Counted from the first letter of the stretch, positions 1,966 to 28,704 are shown. The stretch: DNA of 64,000 bases from Candidatus Dormiibacterota bacterium (GCA_963709585.1 CAVPXI010000014.1:160001-224000), one strand, 5' to 3'. The notes: generated from the letters alone by a model not told the origin. A program made the numbers and translations.

Positions 1966-2082
1966 CGTTGGGCATCGCCGCCGCTTTGCCGAGTTCTAGG
2001 CAGCACGCCGCCTGGGTGATGGGCGATGTCGATAATCCCTATCCCATAAGAGCAACGCGGAGCGAGAGGGATTCGAACCCTC
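1966..2082 (-). mobile_element. att-like junction 1: short tRNA-Ser 3' fragment (T-arm + acceptor, 2057-2082) with left CGTTGGG motif
   Basis: GCGGAGCGAGAGGGATTCGAACCCTC at 2057-2082 is identical to copy 4; CGTTGGG at 1966, 91 bp to the left. Confidence 0.75.
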
Positions 2083-2276
2083 AAACTTGCGCGCTGGGGT
2101 GGCACGCGACGCTGTATCGTGGACGCGCATCAGAGCATTGGAACTCTGGCACAGGCCCGTCAGGGGCGTCCTGCCGCCGTCGGAAGATGCAGCGCCAGCG
2201 TAACCTCCGCGCGACCAGCCATCTCGGCGTGCCCACCATGCTTGGTGGGTGTGCTCAGTTGGAAGGCGTCTCAGCG

Positions 2277-4778: not shown

Positions 4779-4836
4779 TCTGACCAGGACGAACGAGGGA
4801 ACCCCACTCGGGGGATTCTCACCAGTATCCTCTTCC

Positions 4837-4880
4837 ATGCGCGTCCTAGTTCTCGGCGCGGGGTTTGGTGGTCTGGACAG
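4837..4880 (+). pseudogene. 5' remnant of an FAD-dependent oxidoreductase (SQR/NDH-2-like)
   Basis: MRVLVLGAGFGGL Rossmann start preceded by a TATCCT -10-like box; similarity ends just before the att arm at 4925. Confidence 0.55.
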
Positions 4881-4924
4881 CTGCGAACTCCTGAGCAACT
4901 TCACCCGTGCCGGATGGCTCAAGC

Positions 4925-5190
4925 CGTTGGGACTTCACTGGGACTCAGACACCATTGGGCGCGAGTAGGTCGCGCCGTTTGATAAGGCGAAGTTCCTTAT
5001 ATTGCAATGGAAAACCGGAGCGAGAGGGATTCGAACCCACGTGGCGGGTTACCCCACCAACCGCATTTTCAGAGCGTCTGAGCGGGGTGCACGGAGGGGC
5101 ATACGGGGGCACTCCGTATTCGAAATCGAAATGGAAAGGGCACCGCGGGGCAGGCGCGGGCAACCGCGTTGGGTCTCCGTTGGGTCTGGG
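4925..5190 (-). mobile_element. att-like junction 2: tRNA-Ser 3' half (5015-5072) with both flanking arms
   Basis: Minus strand reads CTGAAAA loop, TGCGG, variable arm, GGGTTCGAATCCCTCTCGCTCCG. Left repeats CGTTGGGACT/CACTGGGACT at 4925/4936; right CGTTGGGTCT x2 at 5167/5178. Confidence 0.85.
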
Positions 5191-5243
5191 ATTAGGGGCA
5201 TTTCGTCCCTGGGGACTCCGGAGCTTAGAGGTTCTGGACGTTC

Positions 5244-5984
5244 TTATCCAGGTCGGTCTGACGTCCGCGCGCTTGACGCGTGCCGGGGGTCGGGGTTAGG
5301 GTCCAGTTCGGCCAAGTCGTCCGCGAGTTGGAGCGTTTCCTCTACATGTCGCTGCGTCAGGTCGGCCGCAGTCGGGATGTCGCGCGCTGCCAGCGCGGCA
5401 GCGATCCGACTGTGGCCAACACGGCTCGTCCTGCGCAGTCCACGATCGCGCAACACGATGGCTCGGTAGCGATCAGTTCGTGTCCACAGCTGCTCCAACA
5501 GATCAGCAAGAACTTCGTTGTGCGAGGCCGCATAGATGGACAGATGAAAGTCACGATGAGCGCGAAGCTGCGCGTGCAGGTCTCCGGCGTGTGACTGCCG
5601 CGCTAGCGCTGAGATCTCTCTGAGTTCTCGTGGGGTGGCTGATTCTGCGGCCAGGCTGGCAGCGAGCGGCTCAAGCCGCACGCGCGCAACGCACAACTCG
5701 CCGAGTTCGCGCCGCGTCAGGGGTAGGACGCTCACAACCCGGTGTGGGCGAAGCGCGATCAGCCCCTCGCCCTCGAGACGACGCAAGGCCTCGCGAAGCG
5801 GAGTGACAGACAGGCCCAGAGCGTTGGCGAGGCTCTCCTGGTTTATCGTCGATCCCGGAGCGAGCGTCCCCTCAAGTATCTGCGCCCGAACCTCGACATA
5901 GGCTGCTTCGGCCTTGGTCAGAGCAATAAGGGGAACCCTTGTATACGGCGACGAAATGGCCACCCTACGCTCCACGTCTTTCAT
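5244..5984 (-). CDS. GntR family transcriptional regulator (FCD)
   Basis: wHTH LANALGLSVTPLREALRRLEGEGLI; FCD HRDFHLSIYAASHNEVL. Confidence 0.9.
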   Translation of the reverse strand: MKDVERRVAISSPYTRVPLIALTKAEAAYVEVRAQILEGTLAPGSTINQESLANALGLSVTPLREALRRLEGEGLIALRPHRVVSVLPLTRRELGELCVARVRLEPLAASLAAESATPRELREISALARQSHAGDLHAQLRAHRDFHLSIYAASHNEVLADLLEQLWTRTDRYRAIVLRDRGLRRTSRVGHSRIAAALAARDIPTAADLTQRHVEETLQLADDLAELDPNPDPRHASSARTSDRPG

Positions 5985-6066
5985 CTCCGAGCAACTGTTT
6001 ACACGAGCGTCGACGCTGGTGCGCTACCAGTCTATTCTCGCTCGGAGGTCCCATCGACCGATGACC

Positions 6067-7546
6067 TCACCGTCCAATGCCCTCCGCGCCCCTCCCCTGC
6101 CAAGGCCCCAGGTACTCAGCGAGCTCCGTCGCCACGGCCACGACCTGCGAATCGTGATAGGGGCGTCCGATGACCTGCACGCCCACTGGGAGCCCCTCAT
6201 CAGACTGGCCGCACGGAACAACCACGGTCGGAGCTCTGAGTAGCGTCACAACCCGACAGCAGCTCTCGATTTGAACTCCGTACAGGGTGTGTCGACCGAC
6301 CGTGAACTCGTCGGATCGCGGCGCAAAGGCTGGCACCGAGGCTACTGGCATGAGCAGAATCGGCCACTGCGCCATAAACCGATTGACCCGCAGTCGAATT
6401 TCGTCAGCTAAAGCGGTCAACCTTTGGAATTCCGTAAGTGTGCCTTCAGGACGAGACTCGGCCAGCCACCCGCGAACGTAGTCTGTCAATTCATCCTCGC
6501 GGCCCTGCCACAGACGTTTGTGGTCGGCGAGACCATCGAGGTTGCGGAGCGCGCGGTAGACGGACTCTGCCTCGTCCAGACCCGGCGGCCGCCGTTTGAT
6601 AACCCGAGCACCGCGATCAGCCAGCCCTTGGGCGGCGCGCTCGACCACCTTGACCACATCGGCGCGAACCGGGTGGCTACCGTCCCCGTCGCACCAGGCG
6701 ACGCCGACGCCGGCGGTGCTCTGACCCGCCGGTGATCCAAGTGGCACCGGCACGGCGTTGCCATCGACCCCATCGGGACCGGCCATCACCCCCAACAGCA
6801 CCCAGAGATCACGTATCGAGCGAGCAATCGGCGCAATCGTCTGCAGGCGCGCTTGCATCGATGCACTGTTTGGTGGAACCGGTGATGGAGAGGCTTCAAA
6901 AGGGAGTTGCCCGGTTCCCGGGACGATGCCAGGTGTTGGGCGAAGGGAGACCAGCCCAGTGCAATGGGCGGGTAGTCGAATGGACCCTCCGTAGTCAGTG
7001 CCAATGCCAAAGCCGACCATGTGGGCGCCCACCGCAGCCGCATCGCCACCGCTTGATCCTCCAGGGGAAAGTCGGTGGTCAAGAGGATTCAGAGTGTCCC
7101 CGAAAAGACGATTTCCGGTGTGGATTGCGAGCCCAAATTCGGGGCAGTTTGCCTTTCCAAGAAGAACGGCTCCGGCCGCGCTGAGACGCTCGACGGCTGT
7201 GGAGCCCCAGGGGGACGCGAAATCGCGCAAGATCAGGCTTCCGGCGGTGGCACGCACATCGCGTGTCGCGATGAGATCTTTGACCGTAAATGGGACACCG
7301 GCTAGCGGTCCCGGGTCGACGCCCCGAGCCGTCGCATCGTCGATAGATCTCGCCTGCTCCATCGCTCGATCATCAAGGCGCGTAACGATCGCATTTAAGA
7401 TTGGGTTGCTCGAACTCGACCTGCTCAATATGGGCGGTCAGTACCTCGACGGCGCTGATTTGGCGACGTTTGACACGCGCTGCAATCTCGACTGCCGACC
7501 AATCGACTGGCGATCCGTCGGCGCCGTCAGTGGGTGTCCGCATCAT
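6067..7546 (-). CDS. Amidase-signature family enzyme (frameshift near 7410)
   Basis: GPLAGVPFTVKD, GGSSGG, GTDYGGSIRLPA; N-terminus WSAVEIAARVKRRQISAVEV lies in ORF 7373-7558. Confidence 0.85.
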
Positions 7547-7596
7547 CGCCCCCAGCAACCGCGAGACACCGCGAGTCGGGAATCGTCACCAGGTAT

Positions 7597-8322
7597 CTAT
7601 CCGCTCGCGTCGTCCCATGCAATTGCCCTGACGGGTGACCCGCTCGAGTTGGGCATCCGCAGAGGGAGCCCGGCGAACCGGACTCTCCGGCCAACAAGGG
7701 GCTCCAGGTTCGTCAATCCCTCAATGATATAGATACCGGCTGCCAGGCAGATCCGATGCGCGGGCCAAGGATCTTCGACGTCGGGGCGGTAGCACTCTCG
7801 AATACAGATCCCGTCATACACGTGTTCAAAGCCAAATGGCTCGACACCGACAGCGCGAATCCCTTTTTCGACTAACCATTGAGCGCCGCTGGGCGTCATG
7901 TAGGTCTGGTTCACAAGGTATTCGTCGAAGGTACCCGGTTGCTCAGCTGAATACACGAGGACGATGTCATCGTGTCGGACTTCCGGTTTGGCTTGATCGA
8001 GATCGTCGGCAGTAAGTCCCCGACCGCGCGCGAATGAACAGTCGATCACGACGGCCTCACCGAACAAACGGCCAAGGTCAACTTGGTCGACGGATGGCGC
8101 TCCGCGAACGATATGGCTCGGTGCATCGACATAAGTCCCAAAGTGGTCATTTAGCGTCCACTGGCACTGGGCTCCATTGTCGCCTTGCTCCCAGCTCCGC
8201 AACCACGAGAACTCGAGATCCTTGACCGGGCCGTCACCGACGGCGAGCTTGCCGGCGAGCGCCACAAGTGTGTCGTGGTTCATCGGTCGGGTGAGATCGT
8301 AGATTCGTGGCGCCCAGGCCAT
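7597..8322 (-). CDS. Cyclase family (kynurenine formamidase-like) metal hydrolase
   Basis: IYDLTRP, HFGTYVDAPSH, IIEGLTNL, SSGSPVRAIA; own RBS AAGGAG before ATG 8322. Confidence 0.85.
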   Translation of the reverse strand: MAWAPRIYDLTRPMNHDTLVALAGKLAVGDGPVKDLEFSWLRSWEQGDNGAQCQWTLNDHFGTYVDAPSHIVRGAPSVDQVDLGRLFGEAVVIDCSFARGRGLTADDLDQAKPEVRHDDIVLVYSAEQPGTFDEYLVNQTYMTPSGAQWLVEKGIRAVGVEPFGFEHVYDGICIRECYRPDVEDPWPAHRICLAAGIYIIEGLTNLEPLVGRRVRFAGLPLRMPNSSGSPVRAIAWDDASG

Positions 8323-8348
8323 CGTGCCTCTCCTTGTCGATCCGTTCT

Positions 8349-9477
8349 CTAGCTGACCGCGTCCCGGATATAGTCCATGGCCCGATCGACGTCTCGCCCG
8401 CGCCCACCGAATTGCATTCGAAAGTGACCGCTGAACTCCAAACGCGGACCCCGGCGCAATCGGAACACCGTAACGAACCACGAGAGTGTGCGCGAGCGCC
8501 TCGGCGTCGCCGTCATAGTGCGGGAACACATTGAGTCCACCGGCGGGTGGTGTGCACTGCAGTAAAGGGAGCGCATCAAACGCGCGCACAAGCCGGCGGG
8601 CGCGCGAAGCTGCTTCGGCGACCATCCGATCAACCCAACGGCGAGGGCCGGTTAGCGCGGCAAGCGCCGCCGCCTGGCTGGGCAGGCTGACGCAGAGAAC
8701 TGACCATTCCAAACACGCCGCGACCCGGCCGAAGAGGCTCTCGGGCATCACCGCATAACCAACGCGCATCCCGGGCATCGCGTAGTCCTTTGAGAACGAT
8801 CGTATGAGCACGGATGGGACCGTATTCTGCCCCAAGATCACCGGTGACACGTGGTGACGTCCGCCATATACAAAGTGCGACAACGATTCATCGCTCACAA
8901 GTATCAGCCCAGCATCATGAGCCAACTCGATCGCAGCCGCAATATCTCCGTGGTCAAAGACGTAGCCGGTAGGGTTCACCGGCGTGTTGACATAAAGAAT
9001 CTTCGTTCGTCGGCTGACGTACTCCCGAGCCGACGACCACGAGGGACGAAAGCCATCCTCAAACGGAGACGGAAACTGAACTAGGCGGGCCCCAGCCATT
9101 CTCACCAAGCCTCCGATGAAGAACCCTGGGGCGGGCATGAGAACCTCGTCACCTGGCCGGAGCACCGCTCGAAACACCAGATCTAGGGCATGCATGGCAC
9201 CGTTGGTCACCAGTACCTGATCGGTGCCGGCGGCAATGCCCTCGCCGCTCAGTGCGGTCGCGACCGCTTGCCTCAGCGACGCTTCGACGTACGATGGGGT
9301 GTAGCCCTTGGCGCCCATCGATGTGCTCACGGCCTCTCGAACGTGGGGCGGAAGCTCGACGTGAATCGAGCCGCCCAGATGCAACCGGTCGTCAGGGTGA
9401 TGCTCGTCGAGGAGGCGCTCAATTTGACGAGTGACTGGCTCTGTCGCGCCCTCTGTGCTCCACGTGTCTTCGGCCAT
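8349..9477 (-). CDS. PLP-dependent class I/II aminotransferase (frameshift near 8430)
   Basis: VLVTNGAMHAL, NTPVNPTG, SDE, SFSKDYAMPGMRVG; true C-terminus GHFRMQFGG...IRDAVS is in the 8349-8633 frame. Confidence 0.85.
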
Positions 9478-9500
9478 CGTTTGTCCGAACCGTGCCAATC

Positions 9501-10919
9501 CTAGACCAACTCTTCGAAAGCGGCGCGCGCAATGCTCGCTTCAGCAGCTGCGAAGCGTTTGCGAAGCGCAAAGCTGACGCCGATACCGACGATGGCGTAA
9601 ATGACAACGACGAGTGGCAAGAAGTTGTAAGGCACAGATTCGGGACCACCGAAAGGACTCAGAGCCCACAGGGGGTATATGACCACCGCTGCGCCAACGA
9701 CCGGGAGAACAACATGGAGGATGGGATTGAAGAGGTGCTTAAGGCGCGTGCTGAAGACGATTACAGTCGAGAGGAGAATAAGGACATACACGGGCACCAT
9801 CGCAAATGTCAGAACCGTGCCGAGATACGCGTAGGTGTTCATTGGCCCAACCCATATTCCGAGCACGACGAAGAGGACCAGTGCGAGAGCCCCCTCTCCA
9901 ACGATTGCCACCACGGGAGTGCCAAATCGTGGAGAGACGGTTGCGAGAACCGATGGAAGGAGGCGGTCTCGCGCCATCGCATAATAGATACGCGACACCG
10001 CCAGAGTCGTCAGCAACAACGAGGCCGTAAAGCTCGTGACGCCGGCGACGTCGATGGCAATGCGGAACCCCGGCGCGAAGGTTTGTGCGAGGGAGTCATA
10101 CGGCGCGGCGTTCCCCACCAATCCAGAGATGTGATTGACACCAAAGCCGATAGTAGCCGCGTAGGCACCAAATGTTAGAAACACGCCACCGATGATCACA
10201 GCCGCAAAAAGAGCGATCGGGATCTAACTCCGTGGTCGGGACGCCTCCTCTCCCACCGTGGCCACCGCCTCGAAGCCAACGAAGGAGAGCACCCCGAAGA
10301 CCATGGCGCCGCCAATGGCGCCGAACCCTCCCGATGGGACCTCGAACGGAACGATGCTATTGCCGGCCGCGCCCCCCTTTGCGACCACGATGATGCTCAG
10401 AACCGTGACGATGATCAGCTCGGCAACTAGGATGACGAGCCCGATACGCACGGAAGGGCGCACCCCGAGAATGTTCACCGCAGTGACCAGCACAAGCAGT
10501 ATCAGGGCGAGCACGAGCCAATTAATGTCCACGCCGTACCGGGCCAGGATTGTCGCAACATAAACCCCAACGGCGGCGTACACGCCCGGAACCACCATAA
10601 ACGAGCCTGCGAGGACCAGCCAGCCGACCATGAAGCCGACGCGCTGGCCGAGGGCGCTACGGATCCACGAGTAGTATCCGCCGGCGCTCGCTTGATGTCG
10701 CGCGAGCTGTGCCATGCAAGACGCCACGATGAGCATCGCGATGGTCGAGAGGATGAACGCGAACGGCACCTGAGCGCCAGCAAACGACGCAGCGATCGGC
10801 GTATTGAAGTAGAGCGCGGCCGTCGGTGCATACGTAGCAGTCGCCATGGCAACTACGTCTGTTGCCGTCAGCGCATTCCGCCGGAGTGTGCCGCCCGAAA
10901 CCCCCGCCATTAGTCCCAT
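9501..10919 (-). pseudogene. APC family amino acid/amine permease interrupted by an in-frame TAG (10224-10226)
   Basis: Two same-frame hydrophobic ORFs; junction reads SFVGFEAVATVGEEASRPRS*IPIALFAAVIIGG; SAGGYYSW and MARDRLLP motifs. Confidence 0.8.
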
Positions 10920-10945
10920 GAGATGCGCCCTCCAGGATCTTATGG

Positions 10946-10986
10946 ACTATGACCTACATAGTAGAGATCTAGCCGAGGGTGGTCAA
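10946..10986 (-). promoter_or_regulatory. Sigma70-type promoter with overlapping palindromic operator for the permease-amidase operon
   Basis: Minus strand TTGACC-N17-TACTAT; palindrome ACTATG-N5-CATAGT at 10946-10962. Confidence 0.6.
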
Positions 10987-11182
10987 GGCACCCGCTCCAG
11001 CTTCGAAGGGCTACGTGTTGCAGCGTCTGTTGAGCGACGGTCGGCTGACGGCAGCGAAGGCGAGTGCTATTGCTCGGTCTCCTCCAGGCTAGTAGCTCCG
11101 AGACCGCCGATCGGCTCGTGACCCACGATCGGTGATGCCCTTCACCGTTTCGTAAGGGTGCCCAGGTACAAGTAGAGCCGTC

Positions 11183-11869
11183 ATGCCGCAGCCAACCCTC
11201 GACACCGATCTCCGCTCGCCCCTGCAGATCTGGTGGGAGGGCGGGCGGCGCAATGGCGCTGACGCGATGCGAGTGTTCGGAAACCGCGCCCTAACGTCGT
11301 GGGCGGGGTTGCTGCTGCTCCCGGGGTTGGCAGTGGTTACCCTCAGCGGCCTCGCCTTCGGCAACTACTGGCAGCTTCACTACATCGCCGGGCTTTCACT
11401 CATACCCCTCCTATTAGTGAAGCTTGGCGCCACAACCTACCGCGCTCTCTCGTACTACGCGCGGCGTGCTGTCTATCGCGCAGCGGGCGCGCCGGAGTGG
11501 GCCGGACGTCTCCTGGCCCCGGCCTTGATTGTGAGCACGATCATCGCTATGGCAACAGGGATATGGATGTGGTCGCAGCACAGTGAGGCACAGCCGTGGG
11601 CGAAACTTCATGTGCTCTCGGTTCTGGCAATGGGTGCCTGCGTGGGGCTCCACCTGCTGCTTCGTACCCCGATGTCACTGCAAGCAGTCGCGCGAGACGG
11701 AGTCGCGGCGCTTCGGCACAACGGGTCGCGCATCCGCATTGCCCTGGTCGGGATAGCACTCGCAATCGGGCTCATCGTTGGCGTGGGCGGCGGCGCCCGA
11801 TCCCCCTTTCCAAGCCGCGCAAACTCGAGCCGGGCCCGAGCGGTCGACTGCAGGCCATCCCGCCTCTGA
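11183..11869 (+). CDS. Multi-pass membrane protein (possible heme-b binding)
   Basis: About five hydrophobic helices with His at helix starts (LHYIAG, LHVLS, LHLLL); next to a ferric reductase gene. Confidence 0.65.
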   Translation: MPQPTLDTDLRSPLQIWWEGGRRNGADAMRVFGNRALTSWAGLLLLPGLAVVTLSGLAFGNYWQLHYIAGLSLIPLLLVKLGATTYRALSYYARRAVYRAAGAPEWAGRLLAPALIVSTIIAMATGIWMWSQHSEAQPWAKLHVLSVLAMGACVGLHLLLRTPMSLQAVARDGVAALRHNGSRIRIALVGIALAIGLIVGVGGGARSPFPSRANSSRARAVDCRPSRL

Positions 11870-12174
11870 CCTTGCGTCCGAGCCGCTCCATCCGGCAGCT
11901 GGCTCGCTTCCGTGGGCTGGCTTCGCACGAACGCAACGTGCCGCGCTCAGTGCGACGGCGTCAGAGCCATGAAGCATCCCGAACCGCCTGAACCTTGGCC
12001 TGACGGTGTCGATGTCGTGGTTCTCCCAGGGCCACATGCGTACTTCGAGGGATGCTTCGCCGCGGGTGCTGCAGGTCTGAGATCCGCGCCCACGCCGACC
12101 AACGGCGCGCTCAGCCGCGCTCTGCCCGAGCGCTCGTCATTCCGCCGTCAGAATCGTGGCATACCATCGGTACA

Positions 12175-13758
12175 ATGGGCATAGGGCAGGGCCGTGGCGC
12201 CGGCAAACGGTCGCGATCTCGGCGCCGAGGCTCCTCCAGCCGCGCGGCGCCTGGCTCGCGCGACGAAACGACCAATCAGCGTGGTGAACGTGCCGAGCCG
12301 TCGACCGACCGCGACGGCGCATCCGCCCTGGGGGTAGCCGACGGTGCCGGCATAGTCGTGGCGATCCCTCCCATGCGTGCGGGCGCGCAAGCGACCGCCG
12401 CCGTCCGGCGCTCGCTCCGCGTTCCTCGTTCCTGGGGACTCCGGCCCACCGACGTCACGTTGATTGTGTTCGCCAACGCCGCGCTGATCGTCGCCATGTG
12501 GGTGCGTCACGGGCAGATGCCCAACCTGGGCAACGCTGGCGCGGTGCTGTCCGCGGCTGGTCAAGTCACTGCCCTGCTTGGCACGTATTCGGCGATAGTC
12601 CAAGTGGTGCTGATGTCACGGAGCCCGTGGCTGGACCAGCTCTTCGGCATCGACCGTATCGCCGGGTGGCATCGCTGGCTGGGATTCGCCACTGTCTTCC
12701 TGATTTGTGGACACGTGGTCTTCACGACGGCCGGCTACGCCGTTAGCAATGGCCACTCCTTTCTTTCTGAGACGTGGACCTTCCTCACCACCTACCCCTA
12801 CATGCTGATGGCCTATGTCGCCACCGCACTGTTCGTCCTCATTGCCGTGGCCTCGGTCCGGGCAGCCCGGCGTCAACTCTCCTACGACAGCTGGCACTTC
12901 ATCCATCTCTTCATCTACCTGGCGATTGCGCTTAGCTTTGGTCACCAGCTCGCCGTCGGCACCGACTTCGAGCGTGACCCCGCCGCGATCACCTACTGGG
13001 TGGCGCTCTACGTCGTCGCCGCACTGCTCGTCCTCAGCTTCCGGGTGCTCATCCCCGCCCGCCTCACGATGCGTCACCGGCTTCGGGTTCGCGCCGTGGT
13101 TGAGGAGGCGCCAGGGGTCATCTCCATCTACATCACCGGCCGCGACCTCGCCGACCTGCCCATGCGCGCCGGTCAGTTCTTCAAGTTCCGCTTCCTGGCT
13201 CGGGGGATCTGGTGGCGGGTCCACCCGTTCTCGCTGTCCGCCGCCCCCAATGGTGAGTACCTGCGCATCACCGTGAAGCAACTCGGCGGCTTCACCAAAG
13301 CGGTGCGCAGCCTGCAGCCGGGGACCCCGGTGATCGTGGAGGGCCCGTACGGGATCTTCACCTCGCTGCGTCGCCGTCGCCCGCGGGCATTGCTCATCGC
13401 GGGGGGCATCGGCATCACCCCCCTCAGGGCTCTCCTCGAAGAAATGCCGCAGCGCAAAAACGGCATCATCCTGCTGTACCGCGCACGGTCGTGGCATGAC
13501 GTCGTTTTCAAGGCCGAACTCGACGAGCTGGTCCGGGCGCGCGGCGGCGAGGTGCACTACATCATCGGTCGACGGGGAACCGAGATCCATCTGAATCCGC
13601 TCGCGCCCAAATACCTGCGCACCGTGGCCCCCGACCTACGCGAGCGAGACGTCTTCGTCTGCGGTCCCAAGGAGATGATCGAGGGTGTTGACGAGAGCTT
13701 GGCATCCCTTGGTGTTCCTGCCGAACAAATCCATCGCGAGCGGTTCGCATTCCTTTGA
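12175..13758 (+). CDS. Ferric reductase-like TM domain fused to FAD/NAD(P)-binding (FNR) domain
   Basis: WHRWLG, WHFIH, GHQL heme His; GQFF, HPFSLS, EGPYG, IAGGIGITP, VCGP, ERF. Start ATG 12175 follows TACCAT-N7. Confidence 0.9.
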   Translation: MGIGQGRGAGKRSRSRRRGSSSRAAPGSRDETTNQRGERAEPSTDRDGASALGVADGAGIVVAIPPMRAGAQATAAVRRSLRVPRSWGLRPTDVTLIVFANAALIVAMWVRHGQMPNLGNAGAVLSAAGQVTALLGTYSAIVQVVLMSRSPWLDQLFGIDRIAGWHRWLGFATVFLICGHVVFTTAGYAVSNGHSFLSETWTFLTTYPYMLMAYVATALFVLIAVASVRAARRQLSYDSWHFIHLFIYLAIALSFGHQLAVGTDFERDPAAITYWVALYVVAALLVLSFRVLIPARLTMRHRLRVRAVVEEAPGVISIYITGRDLADLPMRAGQFFKFRFLARGIWWRVHPFSLSAAPNGEYLRITVKQLGGFTKAVRSLQPGTPVIVEGPYGIFTSLRRRRPRALLIAGGIGITPLRALLEEMPQRKNGIILLYRARSWHDVVFKAELDELVRARGGEVHYIIGRRGTEIHLNPLAPKYLRTVAPDLRERDVFVCGPKEMIEGVDESLASLGVPAEQIHRERFAFL

Positions 13759-13772
13759 CCTGAGGTCCCAAT

Positions 13773-14273
13773 ATGCCCACTCGAGCTGTCGTTACCCTCG
13801 CCGCCACCGTCGTCGGCCTGTTCCTTTTGGTCAGCTTCCGCACTCCGCCGTCCAACACCATTGGCTCGGGGGTGGCGCTCCTCCCCGCGCGGTCGTCGCC
13901 CTCGGCATCGAGCAGTCCGCCAGCAGTCACGCCATCGGGGGCGCCGCCCTCTGGCGGCAGGACCCCGGCGGCGACCGCGGCTCCCACTGCCGCTGGTCTG
14001 AAGGACGGCTCCTTTACCGGCCAGGACTTCCCCAACTTTTACGGCGATGTCCAGGTTCAGATCATCGTTTCAGGGGGCCGGATCACCGACGTCAAAGCGT
14101 TGCAGTATCCGACCGACCGACCTCAGTCCGCGTACATAAGTTCCGTGGCGATCCCCTACCTCCACGACGAGGTGCTCAAGGCTCAGAGCGCGCAGATCGA
14201 CATCATCAGCGGCGCGACATTCACCAGCGACAGCTACGCGCAGTCCCTGCAGTCAGCTTTGGCCCGGGCCTGA
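13773..14273 (+). CDS. Extracytosolic FMN-binding protein
   Basis: N-terminal TM; YGDVQVQIIVSGGRITDV; flavinylation motif IISGATFTS. Confidence 0.9.
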   Translation: MPTRAVVTLAATVVGLFLLVSFRTPPSNTIGSGVALLPARSSPSASSSPPAVTPSGAPPSGGRTPAATAAPTAAGLKDGSFTGQDFPNFYGDVQVQIIVSGGRITDVKALQYPTDRPQSAYISSVAIPYLHDEVLKAQSAQIDIISGATFTSDSYAQSLQSALARA

Positions 14274-14278
14274 GCTGC

Positions 14279-15067
14279 ATGGTGTCTTCCGTCGCTCCGC
14301 CACCGGGGACCGTACGCGCCGAATCCATCATGGGGACGGTGATCACAGTCGATGTGCGCGATATGGGCCTGCCCGGGTCGGCGATGGATGCGGTCTTCGC
14401 GTGGTTCCACGACGTCGACGCAACCTTCAGCACCTTCCGACCCGACAGCGAGATCAGCCGCCTGTCGCGAGGTGAACTCCGCGAGCATGAGTGCTCAGCC
14501 GACGTTCGGGAGGTCCTCGCACTCTGCGAGGAGGTCAGAGTGTGCAGCAATGGCAGCTTCGACATCCGACGGGGTGGCGGGATCGACCCCCTGGGGCTGG
14601 TCAAGGGTTGGTCAGTCGAGCGCGCATCAACAATGCTTGAGGCGGCCGGGGCCCGCAACTTCTTCATCGACGCGGGCGGTGACGTTGTCGTGCGAGGGCG
14701 GCCCGAGCCAGGCCGTACGTGGCGCCTCGGGATACGTCATCCAGAGCAGGCCGATCGCGTCGCCGCGGTGCTCGCGATTCGCGATGTTGCCGTCGCCACG
14801 AGCGGCACCTACGAACGAGGCGCGCACATCGTCGACCCGCGCAGTGGCTCGCCACCTTCCGGGCTCCTGAGCCTGACGGTCGTGGGTCCCAGCCTCACCT
14901 TTGCCGATGCGTACTCCACCGCGGCATTCGTCATGGGCGACCGCGGCGCTCCCTGGGTGGCCGGCATCGACGGGTATGACGCCTTGGCAATCACGACGCA
15001 GCGTCGCACGGTTTGGACGCCTGGTCTGGAGGCGTTGCTCGTGCGGGGCGAAGAGGCGTCCGTCTGA
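14279..15067 (+). CDS. apbE: FAD:protein FMN transferase (ApbE family)
   Basis: IMGT, FSTFRPDSEISR, DPLGLVKGW, DAGGD, VATSGTYERG, HIVDP, ADAYSTA. Confidence 0.9.
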   Translation: MVSSVAPPPGTVRAESIMGTVITVDVRDMGLPGSAMDAVFAWFHDVDATFSTFRPDSEISRLSRGELREHECSADVREVLALCEEVRVCSNGSFDIRRGGGIDPLGLVKGWSVERASTMLEAAGARNFFIDAGGDVVVRGRPEPGRTWRLGIRHPEQADRVAAVLAIRDVAVATSGTYERGAHIVDPRSGSPPSGLLSLTVVGPSLTFADAYSTAAFVMGDRGAPWVAGIDGYDALAITTQRRTVWTPGLEALLVRGEEASV

Positions 15068-15078
15068 GCGTCACCCCC

Positions 15079-15374
15079 GCATCGGTCACCTTGGTCGGAA
15101 CACCGCTTGAGTCGAGGCGACCCAACCGGGCGCCAAAGGGAAATGCGGAGCGAGAGGAATTCGAACCCTCGATACCGCTTGACGCGGTATACCGCATTTC
15201 CAGGCCGTCTGAGCGGGGTGCAGGGTAGGGCACCGACGGGCACTCAGTATTCAGATTCGAAGCGCTTCGTGCACGACAAGGCAGGCGAAGGCACCCGCGT
15301 TGGGTCTGCGTTGGGCCTGGATTTCGGGCCAAGCGGGCGGGATCGAGCGCGTAAGCACCTCAGATGACATGACC
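15079..15374 (-). mobile_element. att-like junction 3: tRNA-Ser(GGA) 3' half (15145-15203) with a different variable arm, plus flanking arms
   Basis: Minus strand CTGGAAA-TGCGG-TATACCGCGTCAAGCGGTATC-GAGGGTTCGAATTCCTC-TCGCTCCG; right CGTTGGG repeats at 15298/15309. Confidence 0.85.
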
Positions 15375-15480
15375 TTCGCGTGGCCAAGGGCTAAGGAATG
15401 ACACCCGAGCGGCGATCGCAAATTGCGTTAGTCCCCGCTATTGGGGTAGCCGGCGACGCTAACACGCCGCTACCACGACC

Positions 15481-15777
15481 TCAAAGATCAATCGGCGTCG
15501 GTGAGTGCCTCGGTTGAATCGGGTCGTCGAAGTCGCGTTCGGGGATGAGCCTGTCAACACTTGCCCGAGCCTCGCGTTCAGCCGTCTCAGCGGAGTCCGC
15601 GAAGGTCGGGCTCTTGGATATCGGCTCCCAGAATTCGCCTCGTCTACGAATCGCACTGTGGTAGGTGGAAAGTCGCCACTCCTCAAAACCGAAGCTCCCG
15701 TCCGAGTTCCGGACGATTCTCACTTCGCGCCTGCCGGGGCCGTCCTGGATCGTCTTGACCACCTCCGCCGACCCCAT
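15481..15777 (-). CDS. Small hypothetical protein
   Basis: Protein-like ORF (REVRIVRNSDGSFGFEEW); TAGAAT-N6-ATG leaderless signal. Confidence 0.65.
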   Translation of the reverse strand: MGSAEVVKTIQDGPGRREVRIVRNSDGSFGFEEWRLSTYHSAIRRRGEFWEPISKSPTFADSAETAEREARASVDRLIPERDFDDPIQPRHSPTPIDL

Positions 15778-15904
15778 ATATCGATTCTAGGAGACGTGTA
15801 AGTGTGAAAGTCCGATAGATGGGCGACACATCATGTGGATGCACGTGCTTGGTCCAAATGCCGTAAGCCGACTTCGGATCGCGGCGAATGAACCCAGCTT
15901 GGGC

Positions 15905-16510
15905 TCATCCGCCGATGGCAAGGGCGAGAAGGGTATTGACCGCAGTCTCGAACGGGCGGGTACTCCGTTGCACCTGGGCGAGTAGGAGTCCTCCTTGGAG
16001 CGTGGCGAGCAGAGTAGTGGCGAGGTCGTCCGGGTCGATCCCCGACGGGAGCTTCCCGTCGGCATGAAGGGATCTAAGTCCATCGCCGATGGCGGCTGCC
16101 CACTGATCGAACCCTGCCGCTATGAGCGCTCGGGCCTCGGGGTCACACTCGGCCAGTTGACCACCGAGCGAGCCAAGTGGGCAACCGCCCTTTGCTTTGG
16201 TGCGCTTCGCTTCGGTGATCACCATCTTCCGCCAGGCTTCGAGTCCGTTCGCGCTGCGGAGCAGCTGCCCCTGGTTATTGACGATGGCGTCGGCTTGGTA
16301 ATCGATGACCGCCTGCACGAGTGCGTTCTTATCGGGAAAGTAGTGGTACATCTGAGAGCCGCTGACGTCCGCCGCCACCTTGACGTCTTCCAAGGTGGTG
16401 CTCGCCACCCCGCGCTCATGGATCAGGGCGGCGGCCTCCTCCACTATTCGTGCCCGGGTGCGCGCTCCCTTGGGGGTGAGCCTCGGCCGGTCACTCATCG
16501 CGTTGACCAT
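15905..16510 (-). CDS. TetR/AcrR family regulator
   Basis: TRARIVEEAAALIHERG...SQMYHYFPDK; GCPLG; TAACAT-N6-ATG leaderless signal. Confidence 0.9.
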   Translation of the reverse strand: MVNAMSDRPRLTPKGARTRARIVEEAAALIHERGVASTTLEDVKVAADVSGSQMYHYFPDKNALVQAVIDYQADAIVNNQGQLLRSANGLEAWRKMVITEAKRTKAKGGCPLGSLGGQLAECDPEARALIAAGFDQWAAAIGDGLRSLHADGKLPSGIDPDDLATTLLATLQGGLLLAQVQRSTRPFETAVNTLLALAIGG

Positions 16511-16531
16511 GCACCAATGTTAGCAGGATTT

Positions 16532-16580
16532 TGAGTTTGACAACCCAGTCCTGACCTGTCAGAGTGGGTCGCACAACCCA
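16532..16580. promoter_or_regulatory. Two imperfect palindromes (putative TetR operators) between the divergent genes
   Basis: TGAGTTTGACAACCCA (16532-16547) and TGGGTCGCACAACCCA (16565-16580). Confidence 0.55.
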
Positions 16581-16606
16581 TTTTGTAGCGACAGGAGGCA
16601 CATCGC

Positions 16607-17357
16607 ATGACTGACCTCAAGGGCAAGACCGCTCTGGTTACGGGCTCGACGAGCGGGATCGGTAAGGCGACAGCCATCGCCTTGGCCGCCCGCGGCGCTC
16701 ACGTACTGGTGGTCGGGCGCAACGAACAACGAGCCAAAGACGTGGTGGCCGAGATCGAAGGCAGCGGAGGCAGCGCAACGTTCCGGCTCACCACGTTGGG
16801 CGATCTGAAATCGGCCCAGGACCTAGTCGAATGGGCCATTGAGGCAGGCGACGATCATGTCGACATCCTCATCAACAACGCTGGTGTCGCCTTGCTCGGA
16901 CCAAGCAACGCAGCCACCGAAGCCGACTTCGACGAGAGCTTTGCAGTCAACGTCAAGGTTCCGTTCTTCCTCGTGGCGTCACTGGCGCCAGCCATGGCCG
17001 AACGCGGATGGGGTTCGATCGTCAACGTCTCCACGATGGTCGCCAGCTTCGGACAGGCAGGCATGGCTCTATATGGCGCCAGCCGAGCGGCTCTCGAACT
17101 GTTGACGAAGGCCTGGGCTGCCGAATACGGCCCGCGTGGTGTTCGGGTCAACGCCGTTGCCCCCGGCCCGACACGGACCCGCACCATGGAAGCAGTCCCT
17201 GAAGAGATGGTGAATCAGCTCGCAGCACTAGCACCAGCAGGTCGCGTAGCTCAGCCCGAGGAACTTGCTGCGGCGATCGTCTTCCTCGCCAGTGATGATG
17301 CCGAGCTTCGTCCACGGCGTCACTCTTGCAGTCGATGGAGGCCGAGTAGCGACGTAA
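16607..17357 (+). CDS. Short-chain dehydrogenase/reductase (frameshift near 17303)
   Basis: TGSTSGIG, NNAG, YGASR, VNAVAPG; removing one base restores ASFVHGVTLAVDGGRVAT* ending at 17357. Confidence 0.88.
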
Positions 17358-17431
17358 CGCTTGTCGGCCGCGACGTTCAAGTGCGAAGACATAGAACACA
17401 GATCGCAAACTAACAACTGAGGAGTATCCAC

Positions 17432-17752
17432 ATGAGCGCATACGTAATTGTCGAATTCACGGTCAAAGACCCGGATGTTTATCGTGAGAAATACAGCCGC
17501 AACGCTGGACAGACGGCCAAAGAGCACGGAGGCGAGGCTCTCGCCAACAGTAACTGGGAGATCCTGCATGGCGATGGCTCGCTCACCTCAGGGGCGATCA
17601 TGCGGTTTCCGGACCATGAGGCGGCCGTCAGTTGGTACAACTCGCCTGAATATCAGCGGTTGATCGATGTCCGAAGTGTCGCGATGGATGCCCGTTTCAG
17701 CTTGCTCGACGGCCTCCCTACGCGCACAGAAGATGAGCGTACATCCCAATGA
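17432..17752 (+). CDS. DUF1330 family protein
   Basis: MSAYVIV...DPDVY...HGG...FPD...AVSWYNSPEYQ pattern; GAGGAG RBS. Confidence 0.85.
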   Translation: MSAYVIVEFTVKDPDVYREKYSRNAGQTAKEHGGEALANSNWEILHGDGSLTSGAIMRFPDHEAAVSWYNSPEYQRLIDVRSVAMDARFSLLDGLPTRTEDERTSQ

Positions 17753-17840
17753 GCGCACTTCCAGGAAAGACGGTGCTCATTACTGGCGCCAACGCCCGGA
17801 TCGGCAAGGATGTGGCCCGGCAACTGGCGTTGCGCTCTCG
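17749..17840 (+). pseudogene. Truncated SDR (N-terminal fragment)
   Basis: GKTVLITGANARIGKDVARQLA, then similarity is lost before the convergent MerR gene. Confidence 0.7.
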
Positions 17841-17908
17841 GGATTGGCGAGGAGTGAGTCGGTTCGCGTCTGATTGCCGCCAGGCCGCGTTCCAGCCGTC
17901 GGCTCCCG

Positions 17909-18412
17909 TTAGTAGTCCGGTGGGGGTGGCGGCTCGTGCTTAGGTCCATGACCTTTCCGCCCTGGACCGTGCCGCCTCGGCTGTCGCTCCGGCCCGTGTG
18001 GTGGCGGGGCTGGCTGACCCTCCGGGTAATGCTCGTCGTCCATGCCCGTCACCTCGCGGAAGGCCTTGCGCTGGTAGAGGTTGCGCAGGGCCAACTCGGT
18101 GAGCGCCACCCCGTCCCCGTCGCGCCCCGCCCGCCGGACTTCGCGCTCCGTGAGCTCCTTGAGCATCTGTAGGGCGTCCAACGACACTCCGGAGTCGATC
18201 AGACGCTTGGTCAGTCGGGCTACAGCCGTATCCCTGGGCGAATAGCGGAGTTTGCCGTGCTCTCTCGTTGGGCTGATCAGTCCGAGCTCCTCCCAGTAAC
18301 GGAGAACCCGGGCGGTGACCCCGGTGCGTTCGGCCAGCCGTGGGATGGCGACGAGTTCGTCGTCGTTGCCGGTGGTCAGCTGAGGTGGGGTTGGTGGCTG
18401 TAAATCTGCCAT
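17909..18412 (-). CDS. MerR family regulator with Pro/His-rich tail
   Basis: LAERTGVTARVLRYWEELGLISP..R. Confidence 0.85.
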   Translation of the reverse strand: MADLQPPTPPQLTTGNDDELVAIPRLAERTGVTARVLRYWEELGLISPTREHGKLRYSPRDTAVARLTKRLIDSGVSLDALQMLKELTEREVRRAGRDGDGVALTELALRNLYQRKAFREVTGMDDEHYPEGQPAPPPHGPERQPRRHGPGRKGHGPKHEPPPPPDY

Positions 18413-18562
18413 GATCGTGTAAGATTATCTCAGGCGACGGCGAGCGTGTTGAGGTCGCCCGAGATCCGCATCAAGGAGTACAGACGCATGAATCTCCAAG
18501 GCGCTCTCGCACGCCCTGTCGCAGCCAAGAGAGGGGACAGAATCTCGGCACATCGCGACCCG

Positions 18563-19588
18563 ATGCGCGTGGGCATCTGGGTGATGGCAACAGGGCTCGT
18601 CGCTGCGGCCATGTTGCTCCGAGGCGGCCGACTCGTCCGGGCGGCTACCACCACCGGACCGCCCTTTCTCACCCTGGCAGTAGTTATCGCGGCGGGGCTC
18701 GCGCTGGACCGTGCCGGGGTCTTCCGGTTCCTCGCCCGGTTGGTCGTTCCCACCTCTGCCACCGACTGGCTGGCAGCAGTTGGGGTACTCGGGTTGACCG
18801 CCGTACTCAGCGGCGTCGTCAACCTCGACGTCGCTGTGGTGGTCGCGGTACCGGTGGCCCTAACGGTAGCCCGGGAGCGGCACCTCAATGCAGGCCGCTT
18901 CGCTATCGCCGCCGCGCTGACGGCCAACGCCACCTCCTTCCTCTTGCCCACGTCCAACCTCACCACCTTGCTCGTCCTGGGTCATGCTCCGCTAACCGCA
19001 TCTACGTACGCCGGCCAGAGCTGGCTGGCCTGGCTACTGGTCACGGCGCTGACCGTTGGCGCTCTCTCAGTACTGGTGAATCGCGGCGGGCAGCGGCCGA
19101 AATCATCGGCGAAGGGCGCGCGTCTCGAGCCATCTGCTCCCAGCCAGGCGTCGACATCGGCGGACGGCCTGCTCACCTACGCGACAACTACCCGACGCAG
19201 CGCCACATTGGCGCTGCTTGATCTGCTGCCCATGTATGCCGGCGCCTCGGCGATCCGAGCACTTCTGGACGGCGGCGTGACCCTGCACGCCGGGCTACTC
19301 GGCGACGTCGGAATAACGAGCGTCTTCGCCGCCAGCGCCAACAACCTGCCTGCCGCGGCCGCCATCCTAGTCACCGGTAGTCTCTCTCGCTGGGCGACAG
19401 TGCTTGCACTGGCAATCGGCCCAAATCTGCTGCTCACCGGCTCGGTGGCGAGCTTGATCGCGCGGCGCATCGCTCGGGATCACGGCACTGACTTCGGTGC
19501 CGTCAGTTTCAGCTTGCTCGGAGCCGCACTGCTTCCCTTCCAACTCCTCCTTGGCGTCGCCGGGCTGCACCTCATGGGGGCAGTCTGA
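18563..19588 (+). CDS. ArsB/NhaD/SLC13-type ion transporter
   Basis: VNLDVAVV, ANATSFLLPTSNLTTL, ANNLPAA, IGPNLLLTGSVASL; start uncertain (18446-18563). Confidence 0.8.
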   Translation: MRVGIWVMATGLVAAAMLLRGGRLVRAATTTGPPFLTLAVVIAAGLALDRAGVFRFLARLVVPTSATDWLAAVGVLGLTAVLSGVVNLDVAVVVAVPVALTVARERHLNAGRFAIAAALTANATSFLLPTSNLTTLLVLGHAPLTASTYAGQSWLAWLLVTALTVGALSVLVNRGGQRPKSSAKGARLEPSAPSQASTSADGLLTYATTTRRSATLALLDLLPMYAGASAIRALLDGGVTLHAGLLGDVGITSVFAASANNLPAAAAILVTGSLSRWATVLALAIGPNLLLTGSVASLIARRIARDHGTDFGAVSFSLLGAALLPFQLLLGVAGLHLMGAV

Positions 19589-19737
19589 CTGCGACTACAC
19601 GCCATTGAGAGGGTTGAAGGCTCAGGTGTTGACGGCGTTGTCGAGTCGCAACACGCGGGCACGTAGCTCACGGCTCGACACCTAGGACGTGTTCCACTAC
19701 CCGTGGCAACGCAATTGGTGACTGGTGCGACCCATGA

Positions 19738-20066
19738 CGTTGGGTCTGCGTTGGGTTCAGACACCGTTGAGACGTCCGTCTCGCCCGGTGTGGTGAGTAG
19801 GAGGCCGGCAGATATCCCTGATCTCATAAAGGAACGCGGAGCGAGAGGGATTCGAACCCTCGTGGCGGGTTACCCCACCAACCGCGTTTCCAGGTCTCGG
19901 GAGCGCGGTGCAAAGCCGTGCGCCGAAGGGCACCCCGTATTCAGAATCCCGTCGCTGAAAGCACCACGATGCAGGCGAAGGCACCCGCATTGGGACTCCG
20001 TTGGGCCTGGATTTGCGGGCTCAGCGGCACGCTGTGCGGCGACCAAGTACGTCAGGTGACAAGACG
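19738..20066 (-). mobile_element. att-like junction 4 (best preserved): tRNA-Ser(GGA) 3' half (19836-19893) with both arms
   Basis: Minus strand CTGGAAA-CGCGG-TTGGTGGGGTAACCCGCCAC-GAGGGTTCGAATCCCTC-TCGCTCCG; CGTTGGG-type repeats at 19738/19749 and 19988/19999. Confidence 0.88.
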
Positions 20067-20208
20067 CTGGTGTGACCAAGGCTGATCGCACAGGTCGATG
20101 TGGTCGTTAGCGACGAGCACCGTAGTTGTGCCCGAGCGTCGACGACGCGCACTCTGAGCGCAGGGCGCCTGGGGTTGCGTCAGAGGGGGACGCTAGCGAG
20201 GAGATCGA

Positions 20209-20871
20209 ATGCCCACCGTGACGGGTCGCGCATACGATGAGCCTGTGGACGAAGTCTCTCCACCACCGGCGAAGGTCGCCTTCGACAAAATGCTGAGCGG
20301 CATCTTTCTCGTCGTCACACTCCCCGTGTCGCTGGTAATCGCCGCCGCCATCGCCATCGAGAGTGCCGTGTGCCCATCGCACCGCGGTGGAGTGTTTCAT
20401 TCTGAGTTCAGGGTGTCAGCAGGGCCCTTCAGGCTCTACAAGTTCCGCATCCTGACTCCTGCCGGCGAACAGGAAATCAAGGCAGGAGCGATGCCCAAGC
20501 ATGTTGAGAACACCCCCAGCAATCTCACCGTAGTCGGTGCGGCGCTGAAGAAGATTGGGTTGGATGAATTGCCTCAATTCCTCAATGTCATAACGGGAAA
20601 GATGAGCCTTGTTGGGCCGCGACCCAAGCCGCCTGCAGAGTACAAAGAGGAGATCGAACTTGGCCATGAGTTCCGCGCCCAGCTTCAGGCAGGCCTGACG
20701 GGTCCGGCACAAGTGTTGAAAGGTACCGTTCGCACCGGCGATGACTCGCTTCGCGCCGACCTGGAGTACGCGGATCTGTTGCGCAAGGGATCACAACTGC
20801 AGATCCTCGCGTACGATGCAAAGACGCTCCTGAAGACCGTGCGCGTGCTATTCAGGGCCTCCGGCGAGTAG
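20209..20871 (+). CDS. Bacterial sugar transferase (phosphoglycosyl transferase family)
   Basis: FRLYKFR, LDELPQFLNVITGKMSLVGPRP, GLTGPAQV, DLEY. Confidence 0.85.
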   Translation: MPTVTGRAYDEPVDEVSPPPAKVAFDKMLSGIFLVVTLPVSLVIAAAIAIESAVCPSHRGGVFHSEFRVSAGPFRLYKFRILTPAGEQEIKAGAMPKHVENTPSNLTVVGAALKKIGLDELPQFLNVITGKMSLVGPRPKPPAEYKEEIELGHEFRAQLQAGLTGPAQVLKGTVRTGDDSLRADLEYADLLRKGSQLQILAYDAKTLLKTVRVLFRASGE

Positions 20872-28495: not shown

Positions 28496-28704
28496 ATCGG
28501 AATCACATTGGCATCAGATGAGCCCCTCGTTGAGTCGGCGTGGACGCGATATTTGCAATGTGAGCCGTCCAATTGCCTTATCTGCTAAGGGAAACGCGGA
28601 GCGATAGGGATTCGACCCCTCGTGGCGGGTTTCCCCACCAACCCGGATTTCCAGAGCGTTTGAGCGGGGTGCAAGACAGGGTACGGAGGGGCATTTCGTA
28701 TTCG
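28496..28704 (-). mobile_element. att-like junction 5: degenerate tRNA-Ser(GGA) 3' half (28596-28654), right arm truncated after ~50 bp
   Basis: Minus strand CTGGAAA...TTGGTGGGGAAACCCGCCAC-GAGGGGTCGAATCCCTATCGCTCCG; on the plus strand TGAGCGGGGTGCA and GGGGCATTTCGTATTC follow. Confidence 0.8.

Follow-up and report, generated by a model that had tools for sequence, protein, structure and literature searches.

Tandem genomic-island junctions at a tRNA-Ser(GGA) gene of a Candidatus Dormiibacterota bacterium, with candidate integrase attachment arms orphaned from their enzymes

Introduction

A stretch of 64,000 nucleotides from a Candidatus Dormiibacterota bacterium (GCA_963709585.1, CAVPXI010000014.1:160001-224000, equivalent to G000:C14:160001-224000; assembly 88.8% complete), hereafter the window, contains five displaced 3' parts of a tRNA-Ser(GGA) gene, which are the junctions of genomic-island modules accreted in tandem at that gene. 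The best explanation of the array as a whole, which sequence comparison makes probable, is that these are tandem island junctions carrying the attachment (att) arms of a heterobivalent tyrosine integrase, and that they have been orphaned in this genome. Tandem 11-bp repeats (11-mers) in the arms would bind the N-terminal domain of such an integrase, while two sets of three GGGCA motifs, one helical turn apart, would lie between the tRNA core and the P-arm sites as an accessory-protein array, on which an excisionase with an HTH_17 domain would oligomerise head to tail. Fixed spacing and helical phasing of these motifs had been proposed in an earlier, sequence-only reading of the window, whose claims are taken up below together with the results that bear on them.

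Displaced tRNA-Ser(GGA) fragments in one orientation

A repeat search of the window revealed a sequence of 46-76 nt in five copies, at 2037, 4995, 15125, 19816, and 28576. Its minus strand corresponds to the 3' portion of a class-II tRNA, comprising the anticodon loop, a long variable arm, the T arm, and the acceptor end. An assembly-wide search found copies on contig C14 at 158834, 162058, 165016, 175146, 179837, 188597, and 234606, all in a single orientation, and besides these only two weaker matches on contig C4. The copy at C14:234606 is an intact tRNA-Ser(gga) gene (c[234610,234700]), located 10.6 kb past the right end of the window, and a sixth fragment lies 1.2 kb to the left of the window (C14:158834). 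The identity of the fragments to the intact gene ends at the 5' edge of the anticodon loop. Three different variable-arm sequences occur among the fragments, the stem being kept in each, and copy 3 has the variant of the intact gene. Within the 64-kb window, ARAGORN predicted no tRNA gene and Rfam gave no match at the gathering score.

The single orientation, the identity that ends at the loop, and the variable-arm variants point to site-specific integration that has taken place repeatedly at a single tRNA gene. A newly arriving element would each time bring its own tRNA 3' part, with the crossover occurring in the anticodon region; anticodon-centred attP sites are the commoner class as counted in the Islander survey, with 2083 of 3919 islands (PMC4383910). 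The displaced cores thus form direct repeats in the orientation of the tRNA gene, six fragments together with the intact gene, and the earlier identification of the repeats as att junctions is borne out. A dispersed element resembling a miniature inverted-repeat transposable element was ruled out, as all copies lie within 76 kb, in one orientation, and beside the cognate tRNA gene. A search of the genome with nhmmer (E <= 10), using a profile of the 20 arms aligned below, found no further copy beyond tRNA-Ser genes and two chance-level matches.

Architecture of the junctions

In plus-strand coordinates, each junction consists of the P arm of the module to its right, the tRNA core up to the anticodon loop, and the P' arm of the module to its left. 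The P arm, core, and P' arm together look like a complete attP. The arm sites are of two types, A and B, corresponding to two integrase types in related genomes (see below). The features of the five junctions are as follows, with modules designated by the copies that bound them.

1966..1976, plus strand: single imperfect 11-mer, CGTTGGGCATC, left of copy 1, a hybrid of both arm-site types
2058..2083, minus strand: copy 1, tRNA-Ser(GGA) fragment with T arm and acceptor end only; P arm deleted
4925..4945, plus strand: P' arm of module c1-c2, with two tandem type-A 11-mers 91 and 80 bp left of the core
5016..5072, minus strand: copy 2 core, tRNA-Ser 3' end to anticodon loop
5073..5188, plus strand: copy 2 P arm, type A; GCA at 5089/5099/5109, GTATTC at 5115-5122, GCA at 5140/5150/5160, 11-mers at 5167/5178
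15146..15203, minus strand: copy 3 core, variable arm identical to that of the intact tRNA
15204..15319, plus strand: copy 3 P arm, type A; GCA at 15220/15230/15240 and 15271/15281/15291, 11-mers at 15298/15309
19738..19759, plus strand: P' arm of module c3-c4, with two tandem type-A 11-mers 99 and 88 bp left of the core
19837..19893, minus strand: copy 4 core
19894..20009, plus strand: copy 4 P arm, type A; GCA at 19910/19930 and 19961/19971/19981, 11-mers at 19988/19999
28506..28515, plus strand: single type-B-like site, CATTGGCATC, 89 bp left of copy 5
28597..28654, minus strand: copy 5 core, degenerate, with substitutions and one inserted base
28655..28704, plus strand: copy 5 P arm, ending after the GTATTC motif; second triplet and 11-mers missing

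In copy 1, the deletion of the P arm is evident from the distance between the core and the homolog of window position 2124, which is 42 bp here versus 4.5 kb in genome G012. The anticodon of the copy 2 core reads GAA, and its T stem contains a mismatch. The repeat had also been reported at five positions in the left arms, and it exists at all of them; the matches at 4925 (CGTTGGGACTT) and 19738 (CGTTGGGTCTG) are good, but those at 4936 (CACTGGGACTC), 19749 (CGTTGGGTTCA), and 1966 are imperfect.

Tandem 11-mers and the integrases of related genomes

The tandem 11-mers, C(G/A)TTGGGNCT, start at +95 and +106 in the P arm, counted from the loop end, and at about -100 and -89 in the P' arm. Because they occur in both arms, at a fixed distance, beside the integrase gene (int), and covary with the integrase, we conclude that they are candidate arm-type sites of the integrase; every property of such sites that can be computed is present, in agreement with the proposal made from the window by itself.

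The integrases that establish this relationship are found in relatives, where a recombinase gene adjoins the homologous site. One is located directly left of a junction (L060, G016), and others directly downstream of the intact tRNA gene (L062/L066 in G005, L067 in G046, L061 in G016, and L068 in G043). All are Phage_integrase and Phage_int_SAM_3 proteins, which fall into two types, with type A 80-100% and type B 54% identical to L060. Between the start of int and the core, the type-A loci contain two repeats each, CGTTGGGTCTG in L060 and AATTGGGACT in L066/L067, and the type-B loci L061/L068 contain three repeats of ATTGGCATC; in both types, the tRNA end is some 100 and 89 bp away from these int-side repeats. 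In G016, a 73-kb module encoding a type-B integrase contains TTGGCATC sites in the P arm as well as in the P' arm. The pattern extends to the wider family, as 15 integrase-tRNA loci were examined for tandem repeats of period 10-12, which were located at -88 to -114 in 11 loci by script and in 3 by eye, with none in the remaining locus. The repeats, e.g., GGTGTCA, GGGGTCAGA, CTGTAGGGGTA, ACTGGGGTAC, and ACTGTTGT, are distinct from the core and clade-specific in 14 of the 15 loci.

Phasing and conservation of the P arm

The loop ends, marked by the G of ...TTTCCAG, lie at 5072, 15203, 19893, and 28654. Relative to these, copies 2 and 3 have GCA at +17/+27/+37 and again at +68/+78/+88; copy 4 has GCA at +17 and +37, GCG at +27, and the second triplet whole; and copy 5 has GCA at +17 and +37 only, with nothing beyond ~+50. 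Copies 2, 3, and 4 share the start of the tandem 11-mers at +95/+106. The coordinates in the sequence-only reading were therefore accurate, namely those of the first GCA 17 bp from the loop end in copies 2-5, of the triplets with 10-bp period and the second triplet at 5140, 15271, and 19961, and of the 11-bp tandem repeat 95 bp from the loop at 5167, 15298, and 19988. The term "anticodon-loop end" was likewise apt, since the fragments match the intact tRNA-Ser(GGA) as far as the 5' edge of the loop and no further.

These motifs exceed chance expectation. The pattern GCA-N7-GCA-N7-GCA occurs five times in the 64 kb (both strands) versus a mean of 1.17 in 100 shuffles, one of which reaches 5, and all five matches are on the plus strand inside att arms. 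The tandem 11-mer CRTTGGGNCTNCRTTGGGNCT, with at most two mismatches, has five matches versus 0.02 expected, a number reached by 0 of 100 shuffles.

A more extensive view of conservation came from an alignment of 20 type-A arms from 14 genomes, three of the arms being from the window. Homologs of core plus arm were present in 13 of 24 same-genus genomes drawn, and only tRNA-level matches were found outside the genus; three genomes in the draw are flagged unpublished, gave tRNA-level matches only, and support none of the results. The conserved order is GGTGCA, five variable positions, GGGCA, five variable positions, GGGCAC, CGTATTCA, a variable stretch, GGGCACC, GGCAGG, GGCAC, and CGCGTTGGGTCTGCGTTGGGCCTGG. 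Of the 118 columns that extend from the loop through the 11-mers, 67 are retained in 17 or more of the 20 arms, while the spacers vary and are close to saturated, which the motifs are not. Information content is periodic at 10 and 10.5 bp, with at most 1 of 5000 column shuffles reaching the observed power, although such shuffles overstate independence because the 20 arms are related by descent. Period 3 is at the level of chance, being reached by 4185 and 3556 of 5000 shuffles. Among 19 measurable arms, 14 have the first TTGGG at precisely 97 bp from the loop, corresponding to 95 bp to the C(G/A) start, and the remaining arms contain indels of 1, 2, 7, or 10 bp.

A reading of the conserved 185 nt as a tRNA-like structured RNA or a short coding frame is extremely improbable on these data. 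The element does end in the T-arm and acceptor half of a tRNA, and open reading frames (ORFs) of 113-155 amino acids cross the arms. The window nevertheless gave neither an ARAGORN gene nor an Rfam match, and RNAalifold on 18 arms yielded -0.22 kcal/mol for the tRNA-sense strand and -9.04 for the plus strand, with covariation terms of +0.36 and +0.32, respectively, that provide no support for pairing. The lack of a 3-bp conservation period argues against a coding frame, as do the indels and the two arm-crossing ORFs that were scanned (5002-5469 and 19703-20059), which had no Pfam match at E up to 1. The helical phasing of the GCA motifs, and their conservation amid drifting intervening bases, fit a bound protein and not RNA or coding sequence. 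Per-position conservation across the 20 arms is phased at 10-10.5 bp, and none of the features that the sequence-only reading had listed as evidence against protein-binding sites (uniform conservation, RNA covariation, or a coding frame) appeared.

The GGGCA triplets as a candidate accessory-protein array

The GGGCA triplets are confined to the P arm, while the 11-mers are present in both arms. Type-B arms are represented five times, among them at the junction immediately to the left of the window. In these arms, CYGWC is found at about +16/26/36 and +67/77/87, followed by TTGGCATC at +98/+110, i.e., the 3+3+2 geometry is the same as in type A and every recognition sequence is different. The integrase-bearing modules also encode HTH_17 proteins (L061:8438-8641, L060:444-683, and G005:C3:240762), which are 36% identical between types A and B. 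According to published descriptions, winged-helix recombination directionality factors and related proteins bind in head-to-tail fashion beside integrase arm sites, with protomers about one DNA turn apart (PMC11963761).

The triplets most probably serve as a landing array for a small accessory protein that bends DNA. Because the integrase-bearing modules encode HTH_17 proteins, and because head-to-tail binding at one-turn intervals beside arm sites has been described, the first choice for the protein that would occupy them is the element's own winged-helix HTH_17 excisionase, an assignment that we infer and to which we give about an even chance. A host nucleoid protein, or the integrase using the triplets as arm sites of a second class, is a weaker candidate for binding, though one that carries some weight. 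The triplets stand in an arm that also holds integrase sites, their motif is short, and no xis gene is adjacent to int in type-A modules; however, they are restricted to the P arm, unlike the 11-mers, and their motif differs from the 11-mer. Furthermore, the motif becomes CYGWC in type B as Int and HTH_17 change, which a common host protein would not explain.

Phased short direct repeats are typical of iterons and clt sites, and this counts in favor of reading the repeats as replication-origin iterons or as an oriT/clt-like transfer site on hitch-hiking islands. A 2026 preprint reporting many islands that keep only oriT (10.64898/2026.01.13.699239) can be cited in the same sense. Such a function is very unlikely here, as the spacing from the crossover region is constant to the exact base pair, the two arm types have the same geometry, and the integrase-bearing modules lack FtsK/TraB-like and coupling-protein genes, the matches to PF01580 and PF12696 being on other contigs.

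Two further motifs accompany the junctions. The sequence GTATTCA(G/A)A, located between the GGGCA triplets (5115-5122, 15246-15253, 19936-19943, and 28697-28704), is nearly invariant in type-A arms; its inverse, TGAATAC, is present at the same distance in type-B arms, and GTATTCA also occurs in the P arm of an unrelated island on C4. It may represent a host-factor or bending site. An inverted repeat, CCCTTAT-N3-5-ATAAGGG (e.g., ~28576-28596), is found directly 3' of most tRNA fragments, in relatives at the corresponding position left of most cores, and is absent 3' of the intact tRNA of this genome. This repeat may be a terminator or processing signal that is supplied by the element for the rebuilt tRNA.

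Missing enzymes and the state of the array

Genome-wide searches for Phage_integrase, Resolvase, and HTH_17 gave no match in C14:158-235 kb, the 76-kb array, and PF00589, PF00239, PF12728, PF01580, and PF12696 (recombinase, HTH_17, FtsK-like, and coupling protein) had no match there. The tyrosine recombinase gene that accompanies the site in relatives is therefore missing from the window and its surroundings. Pfam scans of 30 plus 29 window ORFs revealed regulators, transporters, and metabolic enzymes, with no integration or transfer genes among them, and a left-flank search (E < 0.001) detected no integrase remnant beside the junctions of the window or in any further flank covered, with the exception of one junction of a relative (L047_4523). 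Because the modules carry no integrase or excisionase, the sites are orphans in this genome. The array is also partly decayed, with the P arm of copy 1 gone, copy 5 cut short, and left-arm sites missing at both copy 3 and the intact tRNA. We infer that the orphan sites could now recombine only with Int and Xis supplied in trans by a helper island of the same type, as for a cis-mobilizable element (CIME).

Among the integrases of the assembly, the nearest to types A and B shares 48-50% identity with them and belongs to an island on C4, at another tRNA and with other arm repeats. Across 42 genomes of the genus, 3 encode a type-A and 2 a type-B integrase, and a type-A integrase is lacking in 12 of the 14 genomes that contain type-A arms. 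With neither recombinase nor HTH_17 protein in the array, no integrase above this level of identity, damaged junctions, and a near-identical soil strain without the copy 4 junction, the earlier suggestion that the junctions are probably still or recently functional is not supported.

The C4 island is a compact one outside the window. It spans ~7.9 kb at tRNA-Ser(tga) (C4:62978-70928) and encodes its own integrase (C4:69598-70704, minus strand) and an HTH_17 protein (C4:69357-69506). Its displaced tRNA fragment is at 62978, and each of its arms contains tandem repeats of GGTGTCA. Genes beside the type-A integrases of relatives differ between genomes (L060:5853-7430 and L062:7338-8564, the L062 ORF being 408 amino acids in length), one of them encoding an AAA_21/AAA_15 ATPase of a kind found in defence systems.

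Exchange of modules between junctions

Comparison of junction flanks between genomes indicates reassortment of modules at the core. To the left of copy 2, a stretch of 770 bp matches a G012 junction with 89.7% identity, whereas the right side shares 112 bp of arm only (76%). Intact-tRNA loci have their right flank in common across genomes (86-93%) and nothing on the left, and no junction pair between genomes shares both flanks. Of the modules with recognisable sites at both ends, 9 of 11 have the same type at both ends and 2 of 11 hold an integrase, numbers that are small and represent our own reading. Module c3-c4 resembles a CIME in that the att sites at its two ends belong to a single family, the P arm and the P' sites both being type A, and in that it lacks integration and transfer genes.

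Contigs assembled from four soil metagenome runs were compared to window positions 1500-21000. They confirm the arrangement and break at the cores, and no trustworthy core-to-core excision joint was found among them, although contigs cannot show rare forms. One joint, 15224->19928, was ruled out as an excision product because it includes 13 foreign letters and has a 77-nt side, which identify it as another homologous arm. Two others, 2443->14292 and 15319->19837, have sides of 21-22 nt.

Orphaned attachment sites or dead scars

The junctions may instead be dead scars, in which case the islands would have lost int and xis, the arms would owe their conservation to recency or to selection in an earlier host, and no recombination would occur, even in trans. 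We regard this as rather unlikely. It is favored by the lack of Int, resolvase, and HTH_17 in the array, by the lack of any integrase above 50% identity in the assembly, and by the truncation of copy 1, the loss of copy 5 sequence after +50, and the missing left-arm sites of copy 3 and the intact tRNA. It does not readily account for the state of copies 2, 3, and 4, which deviate at 3, 2, and 5 of the 67 conserved columns, respectively, and are as well kept as arms in other genomes. Nor does it account for the persistence of type-A arms in the 12 genomes without a type-A integrase, or for the matching types at the two ends of modules, which random decay should erase. The lack of junction pairs with both flanks in common implies array turnover that is faster than species divergence, again contrary to inert scars.

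The reading of the junctions as orphaned sites of a heterobivalent integrase has to be held against several observations that weigh against it, in addition to the shared descent of the 20 arms. In soil run X4, a contig (651 nt, depth 7, with 2 + 6 differences on its sides) lacks 19814-20003; the 190 bp missing from this near-identical strain comprise the hairpin, core, and P arm of copy 4, which argues against strong selection for the site in place and is in keeping with dead scars. An integrase stub beside an integrase-less junction was found only once, in the relative L047_4523, and this too fits dead scars. For the window, an origin of the modules by loss of int is therefore conjectural. 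The P arm L042_2143, assigned to the one integrase-bearing type-A module, is the most degenerate of the 20, with 11 deviations and a 10-bp deletion. The HTH_17 genes of both type-A modules are 7-10 kb from int and not adjacent to it.

The integrase domain that would contact the 11-mers adds to these points, as the expected arm-binding fold of three strands and a helix finds partial support only. Its N-terminal 75 residues have no Pfam match at E up to 1. A structural model of residues 1-85 predicts strands at 16-19, 25-32, and 38-45 and a helix at 48-64, with a predicted local distance difference test (pLDDT) score of ~62-80 by block and about 70-80 in residues 14-66; the mean for the N-domain is a middling 62.7. 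The best fold match in the VIA wide search is the AP2 domain 6sy0_A, with a Z of 5.3 that is below the informative level and a root-mean-square deviation of 3.0 over 60 residues, and Foldseek against the PDB gave nothing at E <= 0.001 for the N-domain model.

Other genes of the modules

Several genes of the array were observed in passing. A TetR-short-chain dehydrogenase/reductase (SDR) gene pair at 15822-17774 has a summed contig depth of 82-771x in the four soil runs, compared to ~1-55x beside it, and loose contig ends occur near 15890 and 17720 in all four, which places this segment in many other contexts or organisms. An ORF of 960 amino acids at 1896-4778 would encode EAL, GAF, and GGDEF domains; its 2-kb middle (EAL and GAF, 2221-4246) is absent from the homologous module of G012, in which an N-terminal piece abuts the GGDEF part. 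This ORF crosses the truncated core of copy 1, and its true start is probably further downstream. In module c4-c5, a gene at 26840-27778 encodes an adenylate kinase homolog with an N-terminal extension of ~65 residues.

Relation to known systems

The attP architecture is of the lambda type, and the array resembles the ssrA arrays of Dehalococcoides and the streptococcal CIME and accretion arrays. The attP sites of heterobivalent integrases, those of phage lambda and of ICEMlSym R7A (IntS/RdfS), are alike in having a core inside a tRNA gene, short direct arm repeats distinct from the core, an accessory array between core and arm sites, and an int gene that adjoins the P' arm. The R7A attP is described as a site of 283 bp with five IntS arm motifs, TGKTGGTATC, and an RdfS site beside P3 (PMC11963761). 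The present sites differ in their motifs, TTGGGNCT and GGGCA, in the regular 3+3 arrangement at 10 bp followed by two arm sites, and in that their proteins are missing from the genome and the system is known from its DNA.

In the ssrA islands of Dehalococcoides, the 3' end of a single small-RNA gene has been described as recurring many times, as direct repeats, within ~100 kb downstream of that gene; the islands vary between strains, and some lack an integration module and are discussed as accreting cis-mobilizable elements (PMC3146451). Repeated 3' ends downstream of one gene and integrase-less islands are common to both arrays. The Dehalococcoides system, in contrast, uses the serine recombinase DsiB and a 20-bp tmRNA repeat and lacks long arms, whereas a tyrosine integrase family, a 57-bp tRNA core, and arms of ~120 bp are involved here. 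CIMEs of the ICESt1 family are reported to keep attL and attR after losing integration and transfer genes, and to be stacked as newcomers enter an att site (PMC5704250). The present modules are unlike them in that loss of int is documented once, in a relative, and in that no conjugation genes were detected among the helper-like modules.

Islands of the type recognized by Islander share with this array the tRNA gene with displaced 3' fragments in one orientation at island ends and the anticodon-centred attP. Islander, as described, requires an integrase for each island and listed 4 arrays of at least three islands among 2168 genomes (PMC4383910); an array of six fragments with no integrase would be filtered out. 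Integrons, in which IntI acts on attI and on folded attC cassettes, are a poorer comparison, since the array has no integrase, its tRNA cores have long duplex arms, and hairpins lack support.

Implications

Taken by itself, the window is an ordinary island array that is partly decayed. Its value lies in the comparison with relatives, which provides an alignment-backed map of an uncharacterised attP, with a core, two sets of three one-turn sites, and two tandem arm sites, and which includes a second lineage that keeps the geometry and changes every recognition sequence. Within one genus, clade-specific arm repeats are available for integrases targeting at least eight tRNAs, a test bed for DNA reading by integrase N-domains and excisionases and for orthogonal integration design.

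More tentatively, and with a probability that we rate as rather low, the tRNA-Ser(GGA) locus could be an integron-like capture platform, at which rare Int/Xis helper islands shuffle attP-bearing modules in trans. If this is true, metabolic and regulatory modules of ~3-15 kb without an integrase would each have a complete, type-matched attP, and their arm sites would be kept by selection on the modules, greatly outnumbering the enzymes, as in the 12 of 14 genomes noted above. The observation that att sites can far outnumber enzymes in soil bacteria bears on how accessory metabolic genes move among them.

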